A stretch of 64,000 nucleotides of DNA, taken from assembly GCF_036507355.1 (NCBI RefSeq), contig NZ_AP027877.1; one strand, 5' to 3'. Below, in pieces: positions 7,692 through 18,078 of the stretch; position 1 is the first letter of the stretch; the number at the start of each line of letters is the position of its first letter. Origin of the DNA: Escherichia coli (GTDB taxonomy: Bacteria; Pseudomonadota; Gammaproteobacteria; Enterobacterales; Enterobacteriaceae). The notes beneath the pieces are model-generated. The model was given only the letters and a program-made list of their open reading frames with translations. It did no database searches and was not told the origin of the DNA. Made by a program: the position numbers and the translations under genes.

Positions 7692-8108
7692 TTACTCCCC
7701 TTGTAGTGTCGCGATGATGCGACGCGATCCGCCGTGGATGCGATGTTCCCCCAGCCAAATGCCTTGCCAGGTGCCGGTCTGAATACGCCCTTTATGCACC
7801 GGCAATACAAGCGATGTTCCCAGCATTGAGGATTTGATATGAGAAGGCATATCGTCTGCTCCCTCATAGTCATGCTCATAGTTTCCATTATCGGGAACGG
7901 TGCGGAGGAAAAAACGCTCCATGTCGTGGCGTACGGTGGGATCGCAGTTCTCATTAAGTGTCAGAGAGGCGGAGGTATGTTGCAGCAACAGATGCAGTAA
8001 GCCGATGTTAACGCGCGGCATATCAGCCAGCTGATTCAGAATTTCATCCGTTACCAGATGAAACCCACGAGATTTGGCGCTAAGCGTGAGCGTCTTTTGA
8101 TACCACAT
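7692..8108 (-). CDS. yjbQ: YjbQ, UPF0047-family protein
   Basis: 138-aa ORF, 4 bp upstream of yjbR on the same strand. Confidence 0.8.
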
Positions 8109-8218
8109 GTGCTGCTCCTTGATAAAACTCTCTTAATCAGTTTGCAGCAAGACAGCGAAAGGATAAAGGTGTGATTAAAAAAACAGCATTCGGGAGAGTG
8201 TCACGCTCTCCCGCTCTG

Positions 8219-9211
<993 letters not shown>

Positions 9212-9349
9212 TTAATGAACTTAATGATACAGCATTACAAAAACAATCGAAGTTTAAAAAATAAAATTTTTATAAAGATGATCTCTGATTGACCAGAACC
9301 CTACCATACAATGGTGACTAATTTTATTACTCTCGAAGGAGATGATGAT

Positions 9350-9853
9350 ATGAATATATCATATGTGAATAGCAACAAAACGACATCTTTACCTGTTGAG
9401 CTAGATGCACTAAATAATAAAGATATCTCTTATGCCAAAGATTTTTCTTATGCCAAAGATTTCTTTTTATATATAGAAATACAGTTAAAAATTGCAAAAG
9501 ATTTTTGTAGACCTGGAGAAGAAGTATCAAGTTCTATTGCAAGTACAGTTTTTCACGCTTTTATTGATTTAGTTAACAAAATCAGGGGAAAGAAAGATTG
9601 TATGTATATTTGTACGCTTTGCTGTTTTGCCGAGGAGGTTAAAGGTGATTATTCTCATTACAGGACCTTTTCATTTGATATCGGTAATCAATATAAGGTT
9701 AAACTTACACAAAGCGGAAAAGATGAGTTCTCTTTAACTTTAGAATTTAACGATACTATAATTGAATCTCAGAAAGTCACAGGCAATAAGGCAAAGCATA
9801 TTCTTAAGGATATAGCAGAATACTATCGTAACAAACCCGGCACTTATTATTAA
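9350..9853 (+). CDS. hypothetical protein, AT-rich, between aphA and tyrB
   Basis: Track ORF 9311-9853; in-frame ATG at 9350 preceded by a strong SD (GAAGGAG); long open frame in ~30% GC DNA; internal 18-bp tandem duplication encoding SYAKDF-SYAKDF; no recognisable domain. Confidence 0.45.
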   Translation: MNISYVNSNKTTSLPVELDALNNKDISYAKDFSYAKDFFLYIEIQLKIAKDFCRPGEEVSSSIASTVFHAFIDLVNKIRGKKDCMYICTLCCFAEEVKGDYSHYRTFSFDIGNQYKVKLTQSGKDEFSLTLEFNDTIIESQKVTGNKAKHILKDIAEYYRNKPGTYY

Positions 9854-10074
9854 GTTTAATAATGATTAGAAATGCAGAAATTATTACCCCACACAAAAAA
9901 ACAGGGTAAGGAATTCCAGATAATTAGGATAATCTTAACAATAAAAGAACTAACAACGTTTATTATCTCTCACGTAGAACGATGGTATCAAAAAAATCAT
10001 CTATAAAGAAAGTGTGAAAGCGACGACAGTTTAATTTCACTGCAGGCTGGGTAATTCCAGCCTGCTTTACTGCA

Positions 10075-11268
10075 TTACATCACCGCAGCAAACGCCTTTG
10101 CCACACGTTGCACATTTGCCGTATTTAACCCGGCGACACACATGCGACCGCTGGCGATGAGATAGACACCAAATTCTTCACGTAGTCGGTCAACCTGAGC
10201 GGCACTTAAACCGGTATAACTGAACATGCCGCGCTGATTAAGCAGATAATCGAAATTGCGTTCTGGCATCTCTGTGCTCAATACCTTCACCAGTTCCTGA
10301 CGCATTGCCAGAATGCGAGTACGCATCTCTTCTACTTCCGCCAGCCAGCTGGCTTTCAATGCCTCGTCATTCAGCACCGCAGCCACCACCTGCGCACCAA
10401 AATTCGGCGGGCTGGAGTAGTTGCGGCGAACTGTTGCTTTCAATTGCCCCAGTACGCGGCCTGCAGCTTCGGCATCTTCACACAGAACAGAAAGTCCGCC
10501 AACGCGCTCGCCGTAAAGGGAGAAAATTTTCGAGAACGAATTGCTCACCAGAGCGGGTAATCCAGCGCTGGCAATGGCGCGAATGGCGTAGGCATCCTCT
10601 TCCATACCGGCACCAAATCCTTGATAGGCAATATCAAGGAATGGGATAAGCTCGCGGGCTTTGAGAATTTCAATCACCGCATCCCACTGGTCATTAGTGA
10701 GATCGGCACCCGTTGGGTTGTGGCAACATGGATGCAGCAACACAATACTGCGGGCAGGTAATGTTTTCAGCATCGCCAACAGGTCATTAAAGCGCACGCC
10801 GTTAGTCGCTTCGTCATACCAGGGGTAAGTACTTACTTCGAATCCAGCCCCGGCGAAGATTGCTACGTGGTTTTCCCAGGTAGGATCGCTGACCCAGACG
10901 CCTGATTCCGGGAAGTAGCATTTCAGGAAATCCGCGCCCACTTTCAATGCCCCTGAGCCGCCAAGGGTTTGAATGGTTGCTACGCGCTGTTGTTGCAGTA
11001 CCGGATGGTCGGCACCAAACAGCAGCGGCGCAATGGCATGGCGATAGCTGTTAAGCCCTTCCATCGGTAAATAAAGCGAAGCGCCATGAGGCTGCGCATT
11101 CAGGCGCGCTTCTGCATCAGCCACGGCTTTCAATTGTGGAATAATTCCGTCTTCGTTGTAGTACAGACCGATACTTAAATTCACTTTGTCGCTGCGAGGG
11201 TCTTCTTTAAAACGCTCCATAAGCGTAAGAATCGGGTCGCCAGCGTAGGCGTCAACTTTTTGAAACAC
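10075..11268 (-). CDS. tyrB: aromatic-amino-acid aminotransferase
   Basis: 397 aa from a GTG start ([14 protein letters not shown]...); class-I aminotransferase with PLP lysine in [16 protein letters not shown]. Confidence 0.95.
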
Positions 11269-11349
11269 GCGATGGTTCTCCAGGTTTACGGGCAGGTGGT
11301 TAAAACACAATAAACCGGAAGAAGGCGAAGATCGAGTGGATGTTCAAAG

Positions 11350-12354
11350 TCAGTCGGGAAGTTGATGAAGAATTTGCCCCAGTCGCTCTTGCAGCGACCC
11401 CGAAACCGAAAGATAAGGAATGTTCCTGCGCGATAATTCCTGTTCGTACCACGCCTGCTGCCGCGCGCGAAACGCCTCTCCTTGCCGGGTGCCATCCTGC
11501 ACAAAGGGAAATTCCGCGCCGCAAAGCACCACCAGAGAGTATTCCCGCTCCGCCAGCTGGTGAAGTTCTTGCGGGGCATGACCATATTGATCAAGGGTAT
11601 AGAACAAGGTCGTGAGTGGCGATGTGTCACATATAAGATAGCGATTAGCTTCTGCTTGTTGTTCCCGACGTACCTGTTCGCGGGCGATATGCAACAAATC
11701 GTCTGCGGTTAAAACACCATTTTTCTCTTCCCAATAGTCGCGACCAAATTCAGCGACATACGCCGTATCGAGCACGTCCGCCAGTGCTTTTGAAAGTGTG
11801 CTCTTACCGGTTGATTCGCCACCAAGCAGACAGATACGGCGAACGAAACTGCGATAAACGTCGTGCGCCAGCATGTAGCGATAACGGTGAACGTCGGAAC
11901 GAATCAGCGTTCCCGAAGGTGATTTATCGCCAAGTGGACGCTGTAATCGAACGTGTTCAACAGGTTGGGCAAAACGCAGTGCCAACACTTTAGCAAAACC
12001 GTCACCATAATCTTCTGCGGTAAATACAGCGTGTGGGCGGCAACGTAATACCTGCAGGCACAGCGTCGCCACATAATGACGATGGATGTCGGCATCGGCA
12101 TCATTATGCGGTATGGCAGGTAAGTTATAACGCGCGATCAGTTCGGGAGTCAGTACCAGAACCATCGCTCGTGGGAAGCGCACTTGCAGCCACGTCAGGC
12201 GCTTTTCAGGTTCACAGTCAGGCATTTCCGGCACGGAATAACTGATGATGAACAGTTCTTCACATTGTGCCAGCGCGGTATTAATCAACCGTTCATGACC
12301 ACAATGCAAAGGCGCGAATTTGCCAACCACCAGTCCCGTTACGAAAGGCTTCAT
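11350..12354 (-). CDS. NadR-like bifunctional NMN adenylyltransferase / ribosylnicotinamide kinase, no N-terminal HTH
   Basis: NMNAT motif GKFAPLHCGHERLI; C-terminal kinase P-loop LLGGESTGKSTLSKALA and EFGRDY, both co-linear with E. coli NadR; ATG at 12354 overlaps the stop of the upstream pnuC-like gene (ATGA); track ORF extends to a GTG at 12378. Confidence 0.85.
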   Translation of the reverse strand: MKPFVTGLVVGKFAPLHCGHERLINTALAQCEELFIISYSVPEMPDCEPEKRLTWLQVRFPRAMVLVLTPELIARYNLPAIPHNDADADIHRHYVATLCLQVLRCRPHAVFTAEDYGDGFAKVLALRFAQPVEHVRLQRPLGDKSPSGTLIRSDVHRYRYMLAHDVYRSFVRRICLLGGESTGKSTLSKALADVLDTAYVAEFGRDYWEEKNGVLTADDLLHIAREQVRREQQAEANRYLICDTSPLTTLFYTLDQYGHAPQELHQLAEREYSLVVLCGAEFPFVQDGTRQGEAFRARQQAWYEQELSRRNIPYLSVSGSLQERLGQILHQLPD

Positions 12355-12908
12355 GATGCCCGCAGCTCCTTGCGCCACTGATACAAACCATGCCAGGCGT
12401 TAATCCAGAACAGGAAATATAAACCGGCGGTCAGGTTTAAACCGCGAGTCATATACAGTGGAACCGCCAGGGTATTCACCGCTAACCAGACGTACCAGTT
12501 TTCGATCCTTCTTCCCATCAACATGAATTGCGCCAGAACGCTGAAGGTCAAAATCAACGAATCCAGCCAGGGGGCCCAGGCATTGGTAAAGGTGTGGAGC
12601 AAAAAGCCGTAGCCGCCTGCCACGACAACGGCACAGAGTAACAAGAGGAAAAAGTGACTGGCTTGCGTCCGACGCACTGGCAAGACATCGCCACCCTGAC
12701 CTTTCAGCCAGTGGATCCAACCGGTGATGCTGGTCGCGATGAAGAATAACTGGAGCGTGACATCGGCATAGAGTTGCACGGACCAAAAAACCCAGCCATA
12801 AAGCATGCTACCAATTATGCCGATCCACCACGTATGCACATTGTTTCTGGCAGCCAGCCAGACGGAAACCGCGTATGCCAGACACGCGGCGATTTCTGAA
12901 TAAGACAT
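12351..12908 (-). CDS. PnuC-family nicotinamide-riboside-type transporter, short form
   Basis: 185-aa polytopic membrane protein; Trp-rich helices with QLYA..LQ.FF.A....GW..W and ENW..W..N motifs matching PnuC; SD AGGGAGGG 4 nt upstream; only ~22 bp after the alr stop. Confidence 0.85.
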   Translation of the reverse strand: MSYSEIAACLAYAVSVWLAARNNVHTWWIGIIGSMLYGWVFWSVQLYADVTLQLFFIATSITGWIHWLKGQGGDVLPVRRTQASHFFLLLLCAVVVAGGYGFLLHTFTNAWAPWLDSLILTFSVLAQFMLMGRRIENWYVWLAVNTLAVPLYMTRGLNLTAGLYFLFWINAWHGLYQWRKELRAS

Positions 12909-12930
12909 TGTCCCTCCCTGGAGACGGATA

Positions 12931-14010
12931 TTAATCCACGTATTTCATCGCGACCCTTGAAGTCAGGCGCGTAATAAGTTCGTAAGCGCTTACTTTCGTC
13001 ATTTCAGCGATACGTTCTACGGGCAAACCTTCACCCCACAAAATGACCGGGTCCCCGGCTTTATCCTGTGCCTGTGGACCTAAGTCTACGCAGATCATAT
13101 CCATCGCGACTCGCCCGACAATCGGCACTTCGCGACCGTTCACCAGCACTGGCGTACCAGACGGCGCAGCGCGCGGATAACCATCGCCATAGCCCATCGC
13201 GACTACGCCAAGACGGGTATCACGTTCGCTTACCCAGGTTCCACCATAACCAACAGGTTCTCCGGCTTTATGCTCACGCACGGCAATCAGGCTGGAGGTT
13301 AGTGACATCACTGGCTGACAGCCAAAATCGGCACCGGTGGAGCGATCTTCCAGCGGCGAGACGCCATAAAGAATGATGCCCGGGCGCACCCAGTCAAAAT
13401 GCGACTGTGGCCACAGCAGAATGCCACCCGATGCGGCAATGGAACGTTGACCAGGTTTGCCTTCGCAAAAGGTATTAAAGATAGCGAGTTGTTTCTCGGT
13501 TGCGCCGCATTTTGGTTCATCCGCGCGCGCAAAATGGCTGACGATATTCACCGGCTGACGAACGTTTTTGCACTGGGTCAGGCGATGATAAAACGCCTCA
13601 GCCTGTTCCGGCCTTACGCCCAGACGGTGCATACCGGTATCGAGTTTCATCCAGACGGTAACCGGCTCTTCCAGATGCGCCTCTTCCAGCGCAGCCAGCT
13701 GTTCTTCGTTATGTACGGCGGTATGAAAATGTTGCGCAGAAATCGTCGGCAGATCTCTGGCATCAAAAAAGCCTTCGAGTAACAGTACAGGTTTGGTGAT
13801 TCCCCCCGCACGCAGTCGCAGAGCTTCTTCGAGACGGGCTACGCCAAAGGCGTCAGCATCGGGGAGCGTTCGCGCGGTCTCAAGAAGACCGTGACCATAA
13901 GCGTTCGCTTTCACCACCGCAACCATTTTACTGGCAGGAGCCAGTTCACGAAGACGTTGCAGGTTGTGTCGCAGAGCGCGGCGGTTAATCACAACAGTTG
14001 CCGCTTGCAT
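12931..14010 (-). CDS. alr: alanine racemase (biosynthetic)
   Basis: 359 aa; PLP-binding [11 protein letters not shown] near the N-terminus. Confidence 0.97.
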
Positions 14011-14062
14011 TTGTGTTCCTTGATAAGTGTTTGCTTTAATTACCTAATTCATAAAATAATTA

Positions 14063-15478
14063 TTATTCGTCGTCGTACTGCGGCCCCGCATAGTTGTCGA
14101 AGCGCGACCATTGACCGTTAAAGGTCAGGCGTACCGTCCCGATTGGGCCGTTACGTTGTTTACCGATAATAATTTCCGCGATGCCTTTTAAATCACTGTT
14201 TTCGTGATACACCTCATCACGATAGATAAACATGATCAAGTCCGCATCCTGCTCGATGGAGCCGGATTCACGCAAGTCGGAGTTGACCGGGCGTTTGTCG
14301 GCACGTTGTTCCAGAGAACGGTTCAACTGGGACAGCGCCACCACCGGCACGTTCAGTTCTTTCGCCAGTGCTTTCAGCGAGCGGGAGATTTCTGCAATTT
14401 CCAGCGTACGGTTATCGGAAAGTGCCGGTACGCGCATCAGTTGCAGGTAGTCGATCATGATAAGCCCGATGCCGCCGTGTTCACGGGCAATACGGCGTGC
14501 GCGGGAACGCACTTCCGTTGGCGTCAAGCCGGAGGAGTCATCGATATAGATATTGCGTTTTTCGAGCAAAATACCCATGGTGCCGGAAATGCGTGCCCAG
14601 TCTTCATCATCGAGTTGCCCGGTACGGATTTTAGTCTGGTCAACGCGCGACAGCGACGCCAGAGAACGCATCATGATCTGTTCTGATGGCATCTCCAGCG
14701 AGAAGATAAGTACCGGTTTATCCTGCAACATCGCCGCGTTTTCGACGAGGTTCATCGCAAATGTTGTTTTACCCATCGACGGACGCGCGGCGACGATGAT
14801 CAAATCCGACGGCTGCAAGCCAGCGGTTTTTTTGTTGAGATCGTCATAACCGGTGTTTACCCCGGTAACGCCATCGTGTGGCTGCTGAAACAACTGCTCA
14901 ATACGCGCCACGGTTGCGTCGAGCACATCGGCGATGTTCTTCGGCCCTTCGTCTTTGTTTGCACGACTTTCGGCAATTTTAAAGACGCGGGATTCAGCCA
15001 GGTCCAGCAGATCTTCGCTGGTGCGCCCCTGTGGATCAAAACCGGCTTCGGCAATCTCATTCGCAACCGAGATCATCTCGCGAACAACGGCACGTTCACG
15101 CACGATGTCCGCATAAGCACTGATGTTCGCCGCACTTGGCGTATTTTTTGACAGTTCTGCCAGATAAGCAAATCCACCGACGCTATCGAGTTGCCCCTGG
15201 CGTTCCAGCGATTCCGCAAGAGTAATCAGATCGATAGGACTACCGCTTTCCTGCAAACGCGCCATTTCAGTAAAGATATGACGGTGTGGGCGGGTGTAAA
15301 AATCGTCTGCTACCACACGCTCGGCTACATCATCCCAGCGTTCGTTATCCAGCATTAAACCGCCCAACACCGACTGCTCCGCTTCGATCGAGTGCGGAGG
15401 CACTTTCAGCCCGGCAACTTGTGGATCGCGTTCGCGGGGTTCAGCCTGCTGTTTGTTGAAGGGTTTATTTCCTGCCAT
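14063..15478 (-). CDS. dnaB: replicative DNA helicase DnaB
   Basis: 471 aa; RecA-like domain with Walker A AARPSMGKTTFA; C-terminus ...GPQYDDE. Confidence 0.98.
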   Translation of the reverse strand: MAGNKPFNKQQAEPRERDPQVAGLKVPPHSIEAEQSVLGGLMLDNERWDDVAERVVADDFYTRPHRHIFTEMARLQESGSPIDLITLAESLERQGQLDSVGGFAYLAELSKNTPSAANISAYADIVRERAVVREMISVANEIAEAGFDPQGRTSEDLLDLAESRVFKIAESRANKDEGPKNIADVLDATVARIEQLFQQPHDGVTGVNTGYDDLNKKTAGLQPSDLIIVAARPSMGKTTFAMNLVENAAMLQDKPVLIFSLEMPSEQIMMRSLASLSRVDQTKIRTGQLDDEDWARISGTMGILLEKRNIYIDDSSGLTPTEVRSRARRIAREHGGIGLIMIDYLQLMRVPALSDNRTLEIAEISRSLKALAKELNVPVVALSQLNRSLEQRADKRPVNSDLRESGSIEQDADLIMFIYRDEVYHENSDLKGIAEIIIGKQRNGPIGTVRLTFNGQWSRFDNYAGPQYDDE

Positions 15479-15560
15479 AGTGAATGGAGTTACCGAGATA
15501 AAGAATGGGTCGAAACTTTACCATATGAAGCAGACCCTGACGATACGTTCTGGAGGACAC

Positions 15561-16544
15561 ATGGCAACACGAATTGAATTTCACAAGCACGGTGGCCCGG
15601 AAGTACTTCAAGCCGTAGAGTTCACTCCTGCCGATCCGGCGGAGAATGAAATCCAGGTCGAAAATAAAGCCATCGGCATCAATTTTATCGACACATATAT
15701 CCGCAGCGGCCTTTACCCGCCGCCATCGCTACCCAGCGGATTAGGTACCGAAGCGGCAGGCATCGTGAGTAAAGTCGGCAGTGGTGTAAAGCATATTAAG
15801 GATGGCGATCGTGTAGTCTATGCGCAGTCGGCGTTAGGCGCTTACAGCTCTGTGCATAACATTAATGCGGATAAAGCGGCGATTCTGCCTGCGGCAATTT
15901 CTTTTGAGCAAGCTGCGGCATCCTTCCTGAAAGGCTTAACGGTTTATTATCTGCTGCGCAAAACCTATGAAATTAAACCCGATGAGCAGTTCCTGTTCCA
16001 CGCAGCAGCTGGCGGCGTTGGCTTGATTGCCTGCCAGTGGGCAAAAGCCCTGGGCGCGAAACTTATCGGCACCGTAGGAACTGCGCAAAAAGCGCAGAGC
16101 GCGCTAAAAGCGGGCGCGTGGCAGGTTATTAACTATCGTGAAGAGAATCTGGTCGAGCGGTTAAAAGAGATCACCGGTGGTAAAAAAGTGCGCGTGGTGT
16201 ACGATTCCGTGGGCAGAGACACCTGGGAACGGTCGCTGGATTGCCTGCAACGCCGCGGCTTAATGGTGAGTTTTGGCAACTCATCAGGTGCGGTTACCGG
16301 TGTGAACTTAGGCATTCTCAATCAGAAAGGCTCGTTGTATGTGACACGCCCTTCCCTGCAAGGCTATATCACCACGCGGGAGGAATTAACCGAGGCCAGT
16401 AATGAACTGTTCTCTTTGATTGCCAGCGGTGTGATTAAGGTCGATGTCGCCGAGCAGCAGAAATATCCGCTGAAGGATGCGCAGCGTGCGCATGCGATTC
16501 TGGAAAGCCGGGCGACGCAAGGTTCCAGCCTGTTGATTCCATAA
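15561..16544 (+). CDS. qor: NADPH:quinone oxidoreductase
   Basis: Internal ATG of track ORF gives 327 aa (MATRIEFHKHGGPEVL...); MDR-family fold with AAAGGVG nucleotide-binding motif. Confidence 0.95.
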   Translation: MATRIEFHKHGGPEVLQAVEFTPADPAENEIQVENKAIGINFIDTYIRSGLYPPPSLPSGLGTEAAGIVSKVGSGVKHIKDGDRVVYAQSALGAYSSVHNINADKAAILPAAISFEQAAASFLKGLTVYYLLRKTYEIKPDEQFLFHAAAGGVGLIACQWAKALGAKLIGTVGTAQKAQSALKAGAWQVINYREENLVERLKEITGGKKVRVVYDSVGRDTWERSLDCLQRRGLMVSFGNSSGAVTGVNLGILNQKGSLYVTRPSLQGYITTREELTEASNELFSLIASGVIKVDVAEQQKYPLKDAQRAHAILESRATQGSSLLIP

Positions 16545-16553
16545 AAGAAATAG

Positions 16554-16583
16554 GGCTTCCACCTGGGAAGCCCTTTCTTTTTA
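16554..16583 (+). terminator. rho-independent terminator of qor
   Basis: GGGCTTCCCA...TGGGAAGCCC hairpin followed by TTTCTTTTT. Confidence 0.65.
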
Positions 16584-16709
16584 TAGTTCGGCTGTATGTA
16601 GGGTACAGCACGATGAATCTGTTAGAGGCGCAATAGTGACAGGTTTGATTATCAATTCCTATTTTGTTCTAAGGATAAAACCTTAGGTTGTGATCATCCG
16701 CACAATCCC

Positions 16710-16952
16710 TTAGTAACGCCAGCGGTCATAACGCTGATATTTCGGCACTTTTGGTGCTTTAATCGCCTTAATAACCCACACCACCGCAATCGCCAGGAGT
16801 AACCACGGCAGCAACTTAATCATCAATGCCAGCATACCGCCGAGGAACATAATGGCCGTCGCCACAACCAGCGCGGCGATAATGCCCAGCAACGAAACGC
16901 CGGTGACCATCAACATGACAAAAAAGCCAATCACAAAAAGTAGTTCCAGCAT
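16710..16952 (-). CDS. pspG: phage-shock protein G
   Basis: Internal ATG of track ORF gives 80 aa (MLELLFVIGFFVMLMV...), two hydrophobic helices. Confidence 0.85.
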   Translation of the reverse strand: MLELLFVIGFFVMLMVTGVSLLGIIAALVVATAIMFLGGMLALMIKLLPWLLLAIAVVWVIKAIKAPKVPKYQRYDRWRY

Positions 16953-16985
16953 GATGCTCTCCCAAATATGAAATCTCTTGCTGGC

Positions 16986-17003
16986 ATTACAAGAATCATG
17001 CCA
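16986..17003 (-). promoter_or_regulatory. candidate sigma54 (-24/-12) promoter of pspG
   Basis: Minus-strand TGGCATGATTCTTGTAAT, close to the TGGCAC-N5-TTGCA consensus, ~35 bp upstream of the pspG start. Confidence 0.5.
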
Positions 17004-17085
17004 AAAATAATCTATTGATTTAACAGCAAAACGCCCCGCGACGGTGCGCAGGGCGTGGTGAATTTGACTATTTTTTGGTGAAAAG

Positions 17086-18078
17086 TTAACGCTTATCCGC
17101 CACCAGTTTGAGCGCGTGTTCCAGCACATTAATGTCTGCACCCGCTTTATGGGCATTTTCACTTAAATAACGCCGCCACTGCCGCGCGCCAGGAATACCC
17201 TGGAACAAGCCCAACATATGCCGGGTAATATGGCCAAGATACGTCCCCTGGCTGAGTTCACGCTCAATGTACGGATACATGGCGCGCACTACCGCCACCG
17301 GATCGGCATCGGTATCCGAGGAACCAAAGATCTCCCGGTCTACCGCCGCCAGAATACCCGGATTCTGATACGCCTCGCGCCCGACCATCACGCCATCCAT
17401 ATGTTGCAAATGCGCTTTAGCTTCTTCCAGCGACTTGATGCCACCGTTAATGGACATTGTCAGATGCGGAAAGTCACGCTTCAGTTGATACACACGCGGA
17501 TAATCGAGCGGCGGGATTTCACGGTTTTCTTTCGGGCTTAACCCCGAAAGCCAGGCTTTACGTGCATGGATGATGAACATCTCACACTCGCCTTTGCCGG
17601 AAACGGTGTTGATGAAATCGCAGAGAAATTCATAGCTGTCCTGGTCATCGATGCCAATACGCGTTTTCACCGTCACCGGAATCGACACCACATCGCGCAT
17701 CGCTTTCACGCAGTCGGCAACCAGCTGCGCATTACCCATCAGACACGCACCAAACATGCCGTTCTGCACCCGGTCAGACGGGCAGCCGACATTCAGGTTG
17801 ATCTCATCATATCCACGCGCTTCTGCCAGCTTCGCACACTGCGCCAGCGCCGCCGGATCGCTACCGCCGAGTTGCAACGCTACCGGATGTTCTTCTTCAC
17901 TGTACGCCAGATAATCACCTTTACCGTGAATAATCGCCCCTGTGGTCACCATTTCGGTATACAGCAACGTATTGCGGGAAAGCAGACGCAAGAAATAGCG
18001 GCAATGTCTGTCCGTCCAGTCGAGCATTGGTGCAACGCTAAACCGACCACTCCAGTGAACGTCAGTTTTTTCAGGCAT
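17086..18078 (-). CDS. dusA: tRNA-dihydrouridine synthase A
   Basis: TIM-barrel Dus-family sequence; ATG at 18078 gives 330 aa, track ORF extends to 18129. Confidence 0.9.

Follow-up and report, generated by a model that had tools for sequence, protein, structure and literature searches.

A pnuC-like/nadR-like gene pair between alr and tyrB of Escherichia coli as the probable continuation of an old alr transcription unit

Between the genes alr and tyrB of an Escherichia coli genome, within a stretch of 64,000 nt analysed here as a whole (hereafter the window), we identified a pair of genes, one pnuC-like and one nadR-like, the first of which begins only 22 nt after alr. Based on the organization of this region and its conservation among related genera, we consider it likely that the 22-nt spacer represents a junction of the ordinary kind within an operon, that alr, pnuC and the nadR-like gene constitute one transcription unit, that the arrangement is old, and that tyrB, located immediately downstream, keeps a promoter of its own. 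Both genes of the pair are already annotated in RefSeq, and the junction is of the standard polycistronic type. Searches of the literature for a pnuC-nadR pair at alr-tyrB or in phylogroup B2 returned nothing relevant beyond a 2026 genome paper, which in one passage mentions that alr and tyrB are separated by two ORFs in B2 extraintestinal pathogenic strains (ExPEC; PMC12928451).

All five genes of the region lie on the minus strand of the window, as an earlier sequence-only reading of this DNA had stated, in the order dnaB (15478..14063), alr (14010..12931; alanine racemase, 359 aa, heading the proposed alr-pnuC-nadR unit), the pnuC-like gene (12908..12351; a Pnu-family nucleoside/vitamin transporter of 185 aa), the nadR-like gene (12354..11350; 334 aa, lacking an HTH domain), and tyrB (11268..10075; aromatic amino acid aminotransferase, 397 aa, GTG start). 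A 52-nt spacer that is AT-rich and free of hairpins (14062..14011, minus strand) separates dnaB from alr. The alr product of the window shares 99.4% amino acid identity with that of K-12, and homologous loci are annotated as alr, pnuC and tyrB by RefSeq. The same reading had placed the pnuC-like start 22 bp past the alr stop, behind a spacer holding nothing but an SD sequence, and both statements were borne out, with the spacer occupying exactly 22 nt of the minus strand (12930..12909; TATCCGTCTCCAGGGAGGGACA) and the SD, AGGGAGGG, located at 12919..12912. Further along, the ATG of the nadR-like gene overlaps the pnuC stop codon (ATGA), and the distance from the nadR-like stop to the GTG of tyrB, previously put at about 80 bp, is 81 nt (11349..11269, minus strand), of which the final 78 nt (11346..11269) are the same as in K-12.

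Consistent with what had been described from the sequence, neither a terminator scan nor RNA folding revealed a convincing hairpin followed by a T-run at either of the two junctions. The scan of positions 10000-16000 returned 11 sites compared to 6.1 +/- 2.9 in shuffled sequences, a number near chance, and its sole match in either junction was a stem of five pairs including one G-U in the alr-pnuC spacer (GTCTCCAGGGAGGGAC); this stem is followed by AATGTCTTAT, which is no real T-run, and is not present in other genera. The RNA folding energies of both junctions were indistinguishable from those of shuffled sequence (z = +0.46 for alr-pnuC and -0.02 for nadR-tyrB). An Rfam search of positions 10000-15600 identified no element, and Rfam searches of four related loci yielded nothing relevant.

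From a survey in which one genome per species was scanned, followed by exact-protein look-ups, the gene order (qor-)dnaB-alr-pnuC-nadR-like-tyrB was found in five genera, namely Escherichia (Escherichia sp. MOD1), Enterobacter (Enterobacter hormaechei, E. cloacae, Enterobacter genomosp. O and Enterobacter sp. EA-1), Kosakonia (K. quasisacchari and K. oryzendophytica), Scandinavium (S. goeteborgense) and Atlantibacter (A. hermannii). Nine loci representing these genera were measured, comprising three from Escherichia (the window, GF4-3 and Nissle), two each from Enterobacter and Kosakonia, and one each from Scandinavium and Atlantibacter. The alr-pnuC spacer spans 12-22 nt across these loci and in each contains a purine-rich SD, the overlap between pnuC and the nadR-like gene is 4 nt in all nine, and the gap between the nadR-like gene and tyrB ranges from 72 to 100 nt; no conserved terminator-like hairpin was detected at the junctions in any of the nine. 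The dnaB-alr spacer differs by genus, measuring 11-16 nt in Enterobacter and 143-158 nt in Kosakonia, Scandinavium and Atlantibacter. Identity of the NadR-like protein to that of the window falls from 74% in Scandinavium and Enterobacter to 68% in Kosakonia and 58% in Atlantibacter, with a parallel drop for alr (88-89% in Enterobacter, 82-83% in Kosakonia), and tyrB holds steady at 85-88% in Enterobacter and Kosakonia. The retention of one arrangement across five genera argues against a recent acquisition of the pair. As a separate observation, dnaB, alr, pnuC, the nadR-like gene and tyrB were all frame-broken in tblastn searches of Enterobacter sp. EA-1 (CP025776.1), which suggests a low-quality assembly rather than true pseudogenes.

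Same-strand gaps of less than ~30 nt that are conserved across genera represent the classic operon signature in the distance statistics of E. coli operons. Here, alr and the two genes that follow it share a strand, are spaced by 22 nt and -4 nt, have no terminator between them, and retain their order in the five genera. Given that the 22-nt spacer is too short to accommodate a promoter, that no terminator precedes the pair, and that spacers of 12-22 nt recur across genera, the sequence is best explained by the pair being co-transcribed with alr. The pair would be transcribed by whichever promoter drives alr, with read-through from dnaB a possibility in this strain, and would probably be expressed constitutively along with alr. 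The anatomy of the two starts further suggests that pnuC initiates separately, from its own SD in the spacer after the alr stop, and that translation of the nadR-like gene would be coupled to that of pnuC through the ATGA overlap. An SD-bearing gap of 22 nt, a 4-nt ATGA overlap, the lack of a terminator and a conserved order are also what ordinary enterobacterial polycistronic junctions display. Unlike in ordinary operons, however, the unit would join the supply of D-alanine for the cell wall to NAD salvage, two functions without an evident tie, and the linkage of the pair to alr may reflect the simple capture of a constitutive promoter.

Expression of the pair had been attributed earlier to read-through from a dnaB-alr unit; the part of this proposal concerning alr agrees with the spacer and the missing terminator, but the part concerning dnaB does not apply generally. 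Read-through from dnaB into alr is possible across the 52-nt gap of the window, and the gap of 11-16 nt in Enterobacter is likewise compatible with it. Among 5426 complete E. coli genomes, however, 119 belonging to the ST73 clade (including Nissle, CFT073 and ABU 83972) possess a 721-bp segment that separates dnaB from alr, found in Nissle 1917 at positions 362578-363298 of NZ_CM189242.1 (7579-8299 of the extracted locus, L014). This segment has a hairpin directly past dnaB as well as a lipoprotein-like ORF in convergent orientation, and leaves alr-pnuC-nadR intact. The presence of a convergent gene and a hairpin between dnaB and alr indicates that alr has its own promoter in at least these 119 genomes, and read-through from dnaB is not required. 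The convergent ORF itself is annotated by RefSeq as 243 aa overlapping the start of alr, with a length of ~190 aa including a signal peptide being more likely; it has no Pfam match, and is assigned to a 'YqhG/Tai3 family' in one record.

With regard to tyrB, its promoter had been thought to be compressed by the pair into the short upstream gap, and a comparison with the K-12 promoter had been suggested. This comparison, now performed, contradicts compression: all 78 of the 78 bp upstream of tyrB are the same as in K-12, from the -35 element to the start codon, and include the whole of a conserved core promoter together with the transcription start site (TSS). We propose as -10 element the sequence TATTGT (11312..11307, minus strand), within CGGTTTATTGT, which is invariant in the five genera, and as -35 element the sequence TCGATC (11335..11330, minus strand), a putative hexamer assignment within the cross-genus block CTCGAyCT. 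The two elements are spaced by 17 nt, and the block extending from CTCGAyCT to CGGTTTATTGT is conserved in all five genera. A K-12 tyrB::gfp fusion listed in the supplement of PMC11878033 was constructed with primer MMO-1463, ATGCAT-ACCACCTGCCCGTAAACCTG. The start of the fusion insert, ACCACCTGCCCG, maps to window position 11300, and the primer to 11300..11281. Inserts in the pXG-10 vector design normally begin at the TSS, and we therefore take 11300 to be the tyrB TSS; the mRNA 5' end derived from this fusion is an A on the minus strand, 32 nt before the GTG and 7 nt downstream of the end of the proposed -10.

The operator appears to be equally complete. A statement in PMC4374768, citing Yang & Pittard 1987, places the TyrR sites of tyrB downstream of the core promoter, where they occlude the start site, and on that basis they would lie inside the 78 bp shared with K-12. 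Scanning with the TyrR-box consensus gave four matches of at least 7/12 compared to ~3-4 expected by chance, such that scores of 7/12 are at chance level, and the segment specific to K-12 contains two weak TyrR-box-like matches (8/12 and 7/12), also at chance level. Enterobacter has the nadR-like stop only 4-9 nt from the CTCGA block, with a nadR-tyrB gap of 71-75 nt. The tyrB promoter and operator thus appear complete and naturally compact, with a predicted requirement of ~67 nt beginning ~14 nt past the nadR-like stop, and tyrB regulation should stay unchanged at the promoter level.

A tyrB promoter of its own does not preclude additional transcription from upstream, and a further reading, which we regard as possible yet on balance unlikely, is that the alr-pnuC-nadR transcript runs on into tyrB and adds TyrR-independent, constitutive tyrB expression in pair-bearing strains. 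An intrinsic terminator is absent from the 81-nt gap and from all nine syntenic loci, as this reading would have it, and the alr gene of K-12 is instead followed by a stable REP hairpin (z = -2.19). Against it, the 81-nt gap is rich in C and poor in G (C/G = 2.0), a composition suited to Rho loading, and the Term-seq/bicyclomycin supplement of PMC7815308 lists a bicyclomycin-sensitive, Rho-dependent 'orphan' site in K-12 at 4267111(+), 3 nt before the tyrB GTG. This position corresponds to ~11271 of the window, within the sequence shared with K-12. The C-rich gap and the K-12 site together suggest that Rho-dependent termination could limit read-through into tyrB, and TyrR bound at its sites could in addition act as a roadblock. 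The same Term-seq supplement (PMC7815308), which concerns K-12, a strain without the pair, assigns no 3' end to alr or dnaB, and the K-12 SMRT-Cappable-seq supplements make no mention of alr, tyrB or dnaB.

The pair might also be driven, independently of alr, by a promoter of its own embedded in the 3' coding part of alr, although we consider this improbable. E. coli genes often contain promoters for the genes that follow them, and a sigma-70-like site matching 9 of 12 positions (TTGTCG-16-TATGAT), retained in every genus, occurs at 13121..13094, at a distance of 186-213 nt before the pnuC ATG. The same nucleotides, however, encode a conserved protein segment of 11 residues, which explains their conservation, and are present in K-12, which has no pair. 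Moreover, the region contains 4 promoter-like sites compared to 5.2 +/- 2.2 in shuffled sequences, again at chance level, and synonymous conservation in the 3' part of alr (0.24-0.27) shows no excess over that of the gene overall (0.25). At the opposite end of alr, across its first 60 codons (13831-14010), third positions are invariant at a fraction of 0.40-0.65 among pair-bearing genera versus ~0.2 elsewhere in the gene; the difference could stem from recombination or from a second signal superimposed on the coding sequence, for instance one for translation initiation, an internal promoter or RNA structure.

The pair had initially been described as inserted or acquired, which is an interpretation; what is observed is 1583 bp in place of 173 bp in K-12. 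Alignment with a K-12 derivative showed the two sequences to be identical through the alr stop plus one base, after which 173 bp of K-12 correspond to positions 12929..11347 of the window, with identity resuming at 11346 (TGAACATCC...) for 147 of 147 bases, a stretch that takes in the first bases of tyrB as well as the 78 bp preceding it. Hence the alr-REP-tyrB region of K-12 shares with the window the tyrB-proximal 78 bp, -35, -10 and TSS included, and differs in that a REP hairpin occupies the place of the pair. The 173-bp segment contains a REP-type palindrome with a stable fold (the z of -2.19 given above) and without a T-run, and a word-7 blastn search found no trace of the pair within it. 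The pair was identified in 867 of 5426 complete E. coli genomes (16%) and is lacking from the other 84%, where the alr-tyrB gap is 252 bp. Among the carriers, 786 possess a pair with 90-95% identity to that of the window and correspond to phylogroup-B2 types such as Nissle, ST131 and O6:K2:H1; 82 genomes carry it at 95-99%, and none at 99% or above. For the surrounding region (window 8000-18000), the best match among the 5426 complete RefSeq E. coli genomes was only ~98% identical, which points to a source lineage with few members in that set, or to one catalogued under a name other than E. coli.

Several features of the pair are those of a resident rather than a newcomer. Its GC content (52.6% and 52.2%) is comparable to that of alr (55.4%) and tyrB (52.7%), and climbs to 54-61% in Enterobacter and Kosakonia, tracking the GC of the host. 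Values of dN/dS between the window and Nissle are 0.06 for pnuC and 0.13 for the nadR-like gene, indicating purifying selection on the pair. No flanking repeats, tRNA, integrase or transposase were found at the pair in the window, and no true plasmid copies were detected among 72,556 plasmid records. The description of the pair as acquired therefore finds no support in its occurrence in five genera, its host-like GC, its lack of repeats, tRNA and mobility genes, or the decay of its identity, which roughly follows that of its flanks. We also identified free-standing pairs with an upstream region of their own, of ~140 nt in Pseudomonas and ~1100 nt in Enterobacteriaceae strain B14, suggesting that the promoterless state is specific to the alr-linked context. 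Together with a copy in Serratia sp. Ag1, these occurrences at other sites indicate a self-contained module. Flanking the Serratia sp. Ag1 copy (locus L012, 2434-7532) are transposases of the IS3 and IS1182 types and a toxin-antitoxin pair of the RelE/ParE type. The pnuC of this copy is seemingly 5'-truncated (136 aa), and the copy provided the sole indication seen that the module is mobile.

Within E. coli, the alr-tyrB locus is a recombination mosaic. Divergence of the pair between the window and B2 strains (dS ~0.3) exceeds that of dnaB and tyrB (0.08-0.11), K-12, Nissle and 14EC007 possess alr alleles separated by a dS of 0.47-0.72, and tyrB of 14EC007 differs from the others by a dS of ~0.82, near between-genus levels. 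Along the comparison of the window with Nissle, identity is 96-99% in the 3' third of alr, 73-88% in its middle, and ~91.5% in the pair. A single divergent haplotype block comprising alr and the pair was considered as well, and was ruled out by the sliding form of this comparison. Given the mosaic nature of the locus, an individual lineage may owe its pair to reacquisition through homologous recombination instead of uninterrupted inheritance. Nonetheless, by parsimony across the pair-bearing genera compared, the alr-linked pair looks ancestral in the Enterobacteriaceae sampled, and the K-12-type state is more likely to have been derived by loss. That the pair is instead a recently acquired pnuC/nadR cassette, living on parasitic read-through from dnaB-alr and squeezing the tyrB promoter, appears highly improbable and at the family level is largely refuted by synteny: its absence from K-12 and 84% of complete genomes, its divergence within E. 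coli above that of the flanks, and its evident capacity to move (among mobile elements in Serratia sp. Ag1, free-standing in Pseudomonas and B14) are set against the same position, orientation and tight junctions in five genera with identity falling roughly parallel to alr and tyrB, a host-like GC without repeats, tRNA or integrase, a full conserved promoter inside the 78 bp that tyrB shares with K-12, and the uncoupling of dnaB from alr in the ST73 clade. To the extent that K-12 represents the reduced, derived state at this locus, a gene that is extra with respect to K-12 should not be equated with one that was inserted.

As part of an old alr transcription unit, the pair would place a Pnu-family transporter beside a NadR-type enzyme. 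The pnuC-like protein matches PF04973 over its full length (profile positions 1-175 of 175; 165.7 bits, cutoff 27.3; E = 1.3e-48) and TIGR01528 at 77.8 bits, above the cutoff of 42.45, and has a distant match to the PnuC structure 4QTN (E = 2.6e-8). It nevertheless falls under the enterobacterial PnuC subfamily model NF011926 (64 bits versus a cutoff of 335). The nadR-like protein consists of an adenylyltransferase-like and a ribosylnicotinamide-kinase-like (AAA_28) domain (PF13521, E = 2.6e-33), and its translation contains the nucleotidyltransferase motif GKFAPLHCGH, of the H-x-G-H type, and the Walker-A kinase motif GGESTGKST. Its matches in the PDB are the NadR-type enzymes 9x6f, 8x7f and 1lw7. 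Scores are again below the equivalog cutoffs for NadR itself (TIGR01526, 149.3 versus 341.15 bits; NF005988, 94.8 versus 201 bits), and the N-terminal HTH domain is missing: its alignment with the 411-position NadR model PRK08099 covers model positions 66-387, and the protein starts at the adenylyltransferase motif. RefSeq names the product only as 'AAA family ATPase'. The family is widespread in Proteobacteria, with 2491 proteins at E <= 1e-30, and judged by these profile matches it is a NadR-like paralogue family and not a NadR orthologue.

The organization of the pair is reminiscent of the PnuC/NadR salvage pair of the Haemophilus influenzae type, also known from Salmonella and E. coli, in which a Pnu-family transporter is likewise accompanied by a NadR-type enzyme. 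The layout of transport followed by phosphorylation (metabolic trapping) would be the same, as would the H-x-G-H and Walker-A domains, recognized here from sequence. Differences are that the transporter of the window is shorter than canonical PnuC (185 aa versus 239 aa), and that its partner is without the HTH repressor domain of canonical NadR. The pair therefore resembles a PnuC/NadR transport-and-trap system and is predicted not to be orthologous to the canonical pnuC and nadR of E. coli. Canonical nadR of K-12 and relatives is located elsewhere than nadA-pnuC. The nadA-pnuC operon is where canonical pnuC resides in these organisms (PMC5343134). The adjoining NadR-like kinase is what points to nicotinamide riboside as a putative substrate of the transporter; given that both proteins fall well under the orthologue cutoffs, a different substrate may apply.

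These considerations allow a more far-reaching proposal, which we put forward as speculative and very unlikely to hold, that the Enterobacteriaceae have since ancient times maintained alr-pnuC-nadR-like under selection, as an operon providing a second salvage module that is free of a regulator, is under constitutive alr transcription, acts maybe on another substrate, and is retained in a niche-specific manner. If true, retention in B2/ExPEC and loss from K-12-type lineages would mirror a niche-specific need for scavenging vitamins or nucleosides. The uncharacterised pair, found in ~16% of complete E. coli genomes (ST131, ST73, Nissle and CFT073 among them), could matter for the scavenging of NAD precursors in the host. 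As a further feature of the same neighbourhood, the region directly downstream of tyrB in Nissle (L014, 12417-17001) contains a second sucAB-lpdA-like 2-oxoglutarate dehydrogenase cluster present in B2 strains, which a passage of PMC12928451 describes as part of 'GR 32'.
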